A stretch of DNA of 64,000 nt, from the IMG/VR virus record IMGVR_UViG_3300028832_000003, positions 1 through 64,000 of that record. One strand, written 5' to 3'. This document shows, piece after piece, positions 55,575 through 56,902 of the stretch. The notes beneath the pieces are model-generated. The model did not search any database. It was given only the letters and a program-made list of their open reading frames with translations, and was not told where the DNA came from. Origin of the DNA: a virus (Duplodnaviria > Heunggongvirae > Uroviricota > Caudoviricetes). Within the stretch, counting starts at the first letter, position 1; each line of letters begins with the position of its first letter. Made by a program: the position numbers and the translations under genes.

Positions 55575-56902
55575 GACACTCCCCTATGCTAAAGCGTAGG
55601 GGTTTCTTGTTTCAACCACCATTACACTAACTGAATAGTGACTTACATGATGTCCACAAGCGTTAAATTCGGATATGTCCTACCCTACTTTGTTTTTCTA
55701 TGTTTTATGCTATTATAATTGCTTCAGCAAGTATATTCTTACTTGCATTTATATCTCTGTCGTGTTTTGTATGACAGTTAGGGCATTCCCATTCTCTGAT
55801 GCATAAATCTTTAACTAATGGGTTTTTATATCCACAACAATTACAAATTTGTGAACTTGGATAGTATCTGTCTATTTTAACTACCTTTTTACCGTACCAT
55901 TCACTTTTGTATTGTAACTGCCTTACAAATTCCGACCAACTAACATCAACAGTTGCTCTATGTATTCCTTTACTCTGACTATTGGTTGATTGTTTCTTTT
56001 GTAGAATACCTTTTACATCTAAATCTTCTATTGCTATTAAGTCATAATCACTAACTAATAAATGACTTAACTTATGTAAAAAGTCTGCTCTTTGATTTGT
56101 AATATGTTCCTGCAATCTTGCAACCTTCATTCTTGCTTTGTTACGATTAGAACTACCTTTTGTTTTTCGAGATAGTTGTTTTTGTAATTTAGCAAGTTTA
56201 TTTAAGGACTGACTTAAATATTTTGGATTTGTTATTACTTGTTCATTAGATAAGGTGCAAAAATCTTTAATGCCCATATCTAATCCTACTTGTTTATTTG
56301 TTTTCTGTAACTGTTGTATGTTTACATCAGTACAACATATAGAAACATAACATTTTCCACTCGGCTCTTGTCTTATTGTTGCATTTAGTATTCTACCTTG
56401 TGGTATATGTTTATTTTTTATTTTTACATTACCTAACTTTGGTAATTTAATATGTGTACCCAAAAATTCTATATTGTTGTTTATGCATTTGGTTTTATAT
56501 GAAAATCTATGTGTTTTCTTGTTTTTATATTTAGGAAAACCAAATTTTTGTTTAAAGAAGTGCTGATATGCACTATCTAAATCCTTTAATGCTGATTGTA
56601 AGGCAACACTATCTACTTCTTTTAGCCATTCATTTTCCTTTTTAAGTGCTTTTAAGTCATTTGCATTATCATAATAGGAGAGTGATGATCCATTATTTTG
56701 ATACGAGTTAATTCTTTCTGCAAGATAATGATTATATACAAATCTACAACAGCCAAATGTTTTTGCAAGTAACTCTTTTTGCCTTTTATTTGGATATAAT
56801 CTGAACTTATATGCTTTTTCTGACATTTAACACCCTACTTTCTATATTCTACTTTTGGCTTACATCTACTAACATAAAGGTTAGGGGGTTTTATACCCCT
56901 TC
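55575..56902 (-). mobile_element. IS200/IS605-family insertion sequence carrying tnpB only (IS1341-like)
   Basis: An intact tnpB ORF fills the intergenic gap between two tail genes. Subterminal hairpins lie at both ends (GGGGTTTTATACCCC at ~56887; CCCCTATGCTAAAGCGTAGGGG at ~55593). Boundaries are approximate. Confidence 0.65.
55705..56826 (-). CDS. tnpB: TnpB (IS605 OrfB, RuvC-like RNA-guided endonuclease family)
   Basis: N-terminal YKFRLYPNKRQKELLAKTFGCCRFVYN; RuvC-I GLDMGIKDF; RuvC-II IAIEDLDV; zinc finger CNCCGY...CPNCH; RuvC-III HDRDINASKNI. Confidence 0.85.
   Translation of the reverse strand: MSEKAYKFRLYPNKRQKELLAKTFGCCRFVYNHYLAERINSYQNNGSSLSYYDNANDLKALKKENEWLKEVDSVALQSALKDLDSAYQHFFKQKFGFPKYKNKKTHRFSYKTKCINNNIEFLGTHIKLPKLGNVKIKNKHIPQGRILNATIRQEPSGKCYVSICCTDVNIQQLQKTNKQVGLDMGIKDFCTLSNEQVITNPKYLSQSLNKLAKLQKQLSRKTKGSSNRNKARMKVARLQEHITNQRADFLHKLSHLLVSDYDLIAIEDLDVKGILQKKQSTNSQSKGIHRATVDVSWSEFVRQLQYKSEWYGKKVVKIDRYYPSSQICNCCGYKNPLVKDLCIREWECPNCHTKHDRDINASKNILAEAIIIA

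Follow-up and report, generated by a model that had tools for sequence, protein, structure and literature searches.

A tnpB gene between the tail-tip and fibre genes

We analyzed a 64,000-nucleotide (nt) stretch of a tailed-phage genome (Caudoviricetes; IMG/VR record IMGVR_UViG_3300028832_000003, positions 1 to 64,000; hereafter the window), in which a predicted TnpB-only insertion sequence (IS) of the IS200/IS605 family occupies the junction between a tail-tip gene and a large fibre gene. The genes run on the minus strand in the order of a very long tape-measure gene, a Dit-like gene (61392..60547), a Tal-like tail-tip gene (60550..56903), a 373-aa open reading frame (ORF; 55705..56826, ATG start) and a BppU_N-domain fibre/baseplate gene (51794..55552). 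The Tal-like protein (1,215 aa) matches Prophage_tailD1 and phrog_6211 (minor tail protein), and the 1,252-aa fibre/baseplate protein begins at a GTG codon (55552..55550) preceded by a ribosome-binding site (RBS), GGGAGG, read from the sequence at 55567..55562. Every neighbour of the 373-aa ORF shares its strand, in line with an earlier note on this DNA that had described the ORF as co-oriented with the tail operon.

The product of this ORF is, by homology, TnpB, an RNA-guided RuvC nuclease, with Pfam matches to HTH_OrfB_IS605, OrfB_IS605 and Cas12f1-like_TNB (102.7, 90.5 and 77.5 bits, respectively, all over the Pfam cut-offs) and membership in the protein family phrog_506. It aligns end to end with the ISDra2 TnpB of Deinococcus radiodurans (PDB 8EXA/8BF8/8H1J; E 8e-97, covering residues 3-372 of the phage protein), although the latter is longer, at 408 aa. 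The catalytic residues align with the GVDVGIKD, E and HDRD motifs of ISDra2 TnpB (PDB 8EXA/8BF8), and the two proteins have the same RuvC triad and zinc finger, which in the phage TnpB consist of D183/E267/D358 and C328, C331, C348 and C351 (CxxC...CxxC), all conserved without exception across 23 aligned homologues (64-90% identity). Judged from its sequence, the phage TnpB is intact, and the earlier description of a 373-aa TnpB with all RuvC residues and the zinc finger proved correct in domains, triad and cysteines alike.

Element boundaries, ends and target motif

The right end (RE) was located by comparing the 3' non-coding region with ~190 loci from viral, genome and metagenome collections (loci are given L numbers below). 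Similarity ends at 55573 or 55574 in all relatives whose alignment extends to this point (L033, L034, L145, L091, L005/L025, L188 and L179), and in 66 non-redundant relatives the conserved block terminates in ...G[AG]GnnTCA[A/T/G/C], with unrelated sequence beyond. Because the conserved block stops there in relatives and the flanks diverge, we place the right end, ...GAGTGTCAT, at 55573. With a left end (LE) that starts at 56904, the element spans 55573-56904 on the minus strand, or 1,332 nt; these refined ends differ by at most 2 nt per side from the interval 55575-56902 proposed previously, and its placement in the gap between Tal and the fibre gene stands.

The LE comprises the 78 nt before the tnpB ATG (56827..56904, minus strand) and starts with the linker AAGAAGGGGTATAAAA. 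BLAST aligns it at 75-78% identity to the LEs of L037 and L035, both Bacillaceae elements, in a match that starts with TTTTAT followed by AAG(G/A)AGGG. Immediately 5' of the LE lies the predicted transposon-adjacent motif (TAM), TTTAT (56905..56909, minus strand), whose final T doubles as the initial base of the Tal stop codon, TAA (56905..56903), and TTTAT also precedes the LE in L037, L035, L120, L153, L164, L163, L181 and L152. This is the experimentally defined motif needed by both TnpA and TnpB2 of ISGst2 (PMC10055086). At the opposite end, the last RE bases form the transposon end motif GTCAT (55573..55577, minus strand), which differs from the TAM at two positions, and the right-end motif of ISGst2 is likewise two positions off its TAM (PMC10055086).

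Both ends exhibit the architecture of the IS200/IS605 family, with subterminal imperfect hairpins and homology to the ends of family members. Within the LE, DNA folding gives a 5-bp subterminal hairpin (CTAAC at 56884..56880 with GTTAG at 56873..56869) and an alternative GGGG(G)...CCCCC hairpin (56899..56885), and the hairpin region is followed by a conserved ATGTAAGCC box. The RE folds into a subterminal hairpin at 55603-55581, also on the minus strand, and matches L033, L034, L145 and others; a similar subterminal motif (repeat D16) is carried by LE and RE. GC content is lower in the element (0.303) than in Tal (0.379) or the fibre gene (0.333).

The insertion damages neither tail gene, since the first two element bases (AA) regenerate the Tal stop codon and 5 nt lie between the right end and the fibre RBS. 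Both the GGGAGG and the GTG start, which had been placed at the element's right end in the earlier note, lie just outside it and are intact.

One of the loci used in this comparison, L034 (positions 700-1000; Logan ERR2738205), contains two TnpB elements in tandem, with no gap between the right end of the first, ...GTGTGTAGTTCAC, and the LE of the second, an arrangement that suggests insertion beside another element's end motif.

An empty site in a related phage

Megablast of positions 53500-59000 against 50,697 phage records returned no match, and close phage relatives were located by protein comparison. The only related phage found in this way (L001, from IMG/VR) has the same order of tape-measure, Dit, Tal and BppU genes, with a Tal protein 59% identical to that of the window. 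There, the Tal TAA is followed by just 16 nt, agGGAGGatttagaaa, which include GGAGG, and then by the GTG of a homologous fibre gene; the first 150 aa of the window fibre protein and the first 149 residues of this homologue, encoded directly after Tal, are 61% identical. Removing the element from the window in silico yields ...GATTTTAT joined to AAGAAGGGAGGAAATGATAAGTG, with the same layout as in the related phage: stop codon, RBS, 9-nt spacer and GTG. In the earlier note, a conserved ORF at this position in related phages, devoid of IS ends, would have counted against an insertion; the related phage has no such ORF, and LE and RE are both present in the window. Homologous ends, lower GC content and the empty site in a related phage show that this is no chance reading frame.

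Exact look-ups with the TnpB and Tal proteins recovered no phage other than this one, in each case with the insertion. The insertion is 100% identical over the compared stretches in four samples, with the element always present, an identity that may have various explanations, a single clone among them.

Omega-RNA and predicted guide

Using an alignment of 18 relatives and RNAalifold, we obtained a consensus structure for an omega-RNA scaffold within the RE (55573..55691, minus strand), the 5' end of which may reach into the 3' end of tnpB. The consensus fold contains four conserved helices—H1 (55685-55681 with 55675-55671), H2 (55660-55656 with 55610-55606), H3 (55652-55648 with 55621-55617) and H4, which is the RE hairpin itself—and all four are intact in this copy. 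Compensatory changes were seen in 17 of 24 pairs, and with the structure fixed 93% of cells are paired, compared with 36-46% after sliding the partners by 1-3 columns. Shuffled alignments reached the observed values in 0/500 cases on four of five measures and in 2/500 on the fifth. An nhmmer profile built for this omega-RNA has one match in the window (55691..55574, E 2e-27), and the interval of ~55560-55720 anticipated in the earlier note was about right. The omega-RNA of ISDra2 similarly overlaps the RE. Scanned against Rfam at E<=1, positions 55300-57200 of the window matched neither a curated omega-RNA nor a group I intron.

In characterized systems the guide consists of the 16-20 nt 3' of the RE (PMC8612924, PMC10055086). 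From this rule and from position, we infer a guide of AAGAAGGGAGGAAATG(ATAA) at 55553..55572 on the minus strand, composed of phage DNA beside the RE; the predicted guide spans the fibre RBS in full, and its last base lies 1 nt before the GTG, in keeping with the earlier proposal that it would be drawn from the 5' end or RBS of the fibre gene. The corresponding circle junctions are predicted to read GTGTCAT followed by AAGAAGGGGTAT, i.e., GAGTGTCAT joined to AAGAAGGGGTATAAAA, with a predicted donor joint of GATTTTAT joined to AAGAAGGGAGGAAATG.

The two junctions carry a 10-nt direct repeat, ATAAGAAGGG (56906..56897 and 55574..55565, minus strand). IS200/IS605 elements insert without target-site duplication, and we rejected both a target duplication and a family-wide target preference as explanations of the repeat. 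The LE copy is ancestral, with L035 and L037 starting AAGGAGGG and AAGGATGG, and other elements are without the repeat, in that among those with known RE flanks the LE start does not recur there; for these reasons ATAAGAAGGG is not a target-site duplication, and the right copy is therefore the phage's own RBS region, with a fortuitous match. The predicted guide and the LE begin with the same 8 nt, which creates a TAM-adjacent partial self-match. Of the 401 TTTAT sites in the window, none besides this one matches the guide over more than 4 contiguous nt, and an 8-mer match is expected by composition at ~2e-5 per site. Much of this 8-nt match can probably be put down to selection for an innocuous insertion site a short way 5' of a purine-rich RBS.

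Copy number and relatives of the element

Besides the element itself, no further copies of the LE, RE or omega-RNA were found in the window, where the element is single-copy. Only 78 nt separate its LE boundary from the tnpB ATG. In L035 at least, there is space for an antisense transposase gene between the left end and tnpB. Since there is no tnpA within the element, we file it as non-autonomous, and an autonomous IS605/IS608-type organization (tnpA plus tnpB) was ruled out by the absence of a Y1 (HUH) TnpA from the element.

Relatives of the phage TnpB include the Bacillaceae elements L035, L037 and L081, at 49-52% aa identity, of which L035 and L037 share the LE sequence. The closest TnpB relative (L033, positions 1-1913; ENA ERZ932019) reaches 90% aa identity, with ~89% nt identity in the omega-RNA, and has unrelated flanks. 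It shares no LE with the phage element, and 15 nt ahead of its tnpB ATG is the 3' end of an unrelated 78-aa ORF; L033 may have been immobilised or may have had its left side replaced. We had also considered that the RE of L033 might supply the start codon of the next gene, an idea dropped because that gene, as called, begins in a different frame, at 1541.

Comparison with known systems and with other phage genomes

Compared by published features rather than by sequence, the phage element resembles ISGst2/TnpB2 of Geobacillus stearothermophilus (Meers et al. 2023, PMC10055086) in its TTTAT TAM beside the LE, its guide in the RE flank and its RE motif two substitutions from the TAM, but differs in having no tnpA and in residing in a phage instead of a chromosome. 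By tblastn, TnpB homologues are present in 448 of the 50,697 phage records. The TAM of ISDra2 is TTGAT.

We inspected the tnpB context in six of these 448 records. TnpB stands alone and co-oriented with its neighbours in Bacillus SPG24, Enterococcus iF6, Brochothrix A9 and Clostridium c-st (48-50% identity), such as gp250 of SPG24 (L200, Herelleviridae; NC_030903.1 113744-114901), a TnpB-only element 49.5% identical to ours that lies between the portal and head-maturation-protease genes. In Streptococcus SW27 and Paenibacillus Unity, tnpA and tnpB together follow the lysis genes. What distinguishes the present case from IS1341 phage elements of the SPG24 type is its position at the junction of Tal and the receptor-binding fibre, so that the guide covers the fibre RBS. 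The earlier assessment that an active IS inside a phage structural operon is uncommon is contradicted by the 448 phage records, by the existence of phrog_506 and by the precedent in the SPG24 head operon. This is a known kind of element from a family already present in hundreds of phage genomes, and its Tal/fibre placement is a detail rather than a new phenomenon.

Wider genomic context

Several further features were observed around the tail genes. The tape-measure gene (61453-64000 in the window, minus strand) continues past the window edge, and on the full 151.7-kb contig (L030 1-374) its product is a 3,961-aa PhageMin_Tail protein, an exceptional length that implies a very long tail. On the 3' side of the fibre gene (45230-51193, minus strand) lie a 189-aa ORF, a second BppU_N protein (49745..51193, 482 aa) and three more ORFs of 454-575 aa, which together may form a cluster of multiple receptor-binding proteins. 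Gene orientation switches at ~41400-42200, where plus-strand genes ending at 41393 converge with a module of minus-strand late genes that begins at 42198, and the sign of the GC skew changes at the same place.

Proposed mechanism

Domains, catalytic residues, LE and RE, TAM, omega-RNA and empty site all agree with the central proposal of the earlier note, a TnpB-only IS200/IS605 element between Tal and the fibre gene. We assign a probability of roughly 0.85 to the reading that this is a non-autonomous, TnpB-only IS200/IS605 (IS1341-type) element, related to TTTAT-motif elements such as ISGst2, that inserted at the Tal stop codon, is probably transcribed with the operon and would spread by homing. 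Under this reading, the element would have entered by single-strand "peel-and-paste" at the TTTAT overlapping the Tal stop codon, and would be transcribed by read-through of the late operon. Read-through is the simplest reading of its transcription because no promoter or terminator of its own was recognised: neither a minus-strand sigma-70-like promoter inside the LE nor a minus-strand terminator in the region was found. TnpB would then bind the omega-RNA folded from the RE, with the next 16-20 nt (AAGAAGGGAGGAAATG...) acting as guide, and the complex would cut element-free copies of the phage genome at TTTAT followed by AAGAAGGGAGGAAATGATAA, i.e., at the uninterrupted Tal-fibre junction. Recombination with, or repair from, a genome that carries the element would then install a copy there, producing a gene drive in the replicating phage pool that would explain the presence of the element in all four sampled genomes.

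Homing by TnpB has been shown for chromosomal elements (PMC10055086) and a TnpB gene drive in multicopy plasmids (bioRxiv 10.1101/2025.02.20.638934), and a review holds that the same drive could apply to co-infecting phages (PMC13565253); our literature search found no phage experiment on TnpB homing. The predicted cutting of an element-free allele, followed by repair from an element-bearing copy, parallels both the plasmid TnpB drive and the free-standing Seg/Mob homing endonucleases of T4, with the difference from the latter that recognition here would be by an RNA guide and TAM rather than by protein. The influence on late-gene expression that the earlier note considered possible is conjectural; the fibre RBS and GTG lie intact outside the element.

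A number of observations weigh against this reading. Searching the window, 64 kb of the 151.7-kb contig, by tblastn with a family TnpA revealed no tnpA (best E 0.1), and no close copy of the element was found in 185,579 species genomes (best 52% aa identity), for which reason no host, donor or TnpA acting in trans was identified. The LE hairpin is shorter than in relatives, with 5 bp compared with 7 bp in L034 and 9-10 bp in L037/L035, and excision may be impaired as a consequence. The junction in L001 contains neither the TAM nor a match to the guide, and an element-free allele of the phage itself was found neither by exact search of IMG/VR nor among the loci we had fetched. The earlier label of an active IS is accordingly unsupported, given the lack of tnpA in the window, the 5-bp LE hairpin, the identity of the insertion across four samples and the missing empty-site allele.

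Alternative explanations

Some of these same observations could instead indicate an immobilised, domesticated TnpB, serving either as a weapon against co-infecting relatives with an uninterrupted junction or as a regulator of the phage's own late operon. The window without tnpA and the weakened LE hairpin would fit such a history, as would L033, which retains tnpB and omega-RNA with no shared LE, the fixation of an identical insertion in four samples, and the 8-nt match between guide and LE that is unique among the 401 TTTAT sites. However, LE, RE, TAM and end motif can all still be made out and share homology with their counterparts in mobile relatives, the guide is simply the flank, as in ordinary insertions, and fixation is explained equally by selfish homing or by one shared clone; the RuvC triad is also intact, unlike that of nuclease-dead TldR. 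We regard domestication as unlikely, if the most plausible of the alternatives. A TldR-type system, with a nuclease-dead protein and a promoter-aimed guide, was rejected as such, the triad being intact and the guide being the native RE flank. A distinctly improbable reading holds that a nuclease-competent TnpB and its omega-RNA double as regulator of their own receptor-binding module in an RNA-guided feedback loop. In that scheme, each transcript processed to omega-RNA would be lost for fibre translation, as the guide holds the whole fibre RBS, and the 8-nt self-match at the LE, bound without cutting, could keep transcription from running on from Tal into tnpB and the fibre gene.

Slightly less likely again than domestication is that the element is an inert recent hitch-hiker at a harmless site, without effect on the phage, whose TnpB is unexpressed or irrelevant and which will decay. 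The neutrality of the site, with a restored stop codon and an RBS and GTG left as they were, is what one would expect of such a passenger, and so is the single copy in the window, but the ORF is full-length with its catalytic residues complete, all four omega-RNA helices are preserved, and co-orientation within a late operon with no upstream terminator makes transcription hard to avoid. Least likely of all, and in our view very nearly negligible, is that the ORF is a native, conserved phage gene rather than an insertion, or that the locus is an IStron (a group I intron combined with TnpB) splicing from the late mRNA. IStrons are defined by a long structured region that matches the group I intron covariance model and lies within the transposon, ahead of its genes, with splice sites at the LE and RE boundaries (bioRxiv 10.1101/2023.11.20.567912). 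Co-orientation with the operon and the presence of IStron hosts among the clostridial relatives are compatible with these ideas; against them stand the related phage L001, with no such gene and a 16-nt junction, and the homology of LE and RE to those of other elements. The IStron in particular was rejected on the lack of an Rfam group I intron match, an LE of just 78 nt and a variable RE terminal base, which is T here and A, G or C in relatives, with no conserved final G.

Implications

In the homing reading that we favour, this locus offers a natural case for testing a TnpB gene drive in phage populations, with element boundaries, TAM, predicted guide and the empty site, GATTTTAT joined to AAGAAGGGAGGAAATGATAAGTG, all defined, and with an insertion that comes at no obvious cost to the phage. 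It shows that elements of this family can lie at a junction 5' of a receptor-binding gene, a position from which host-range determinants could be swept along by co-conversion when the element homes.

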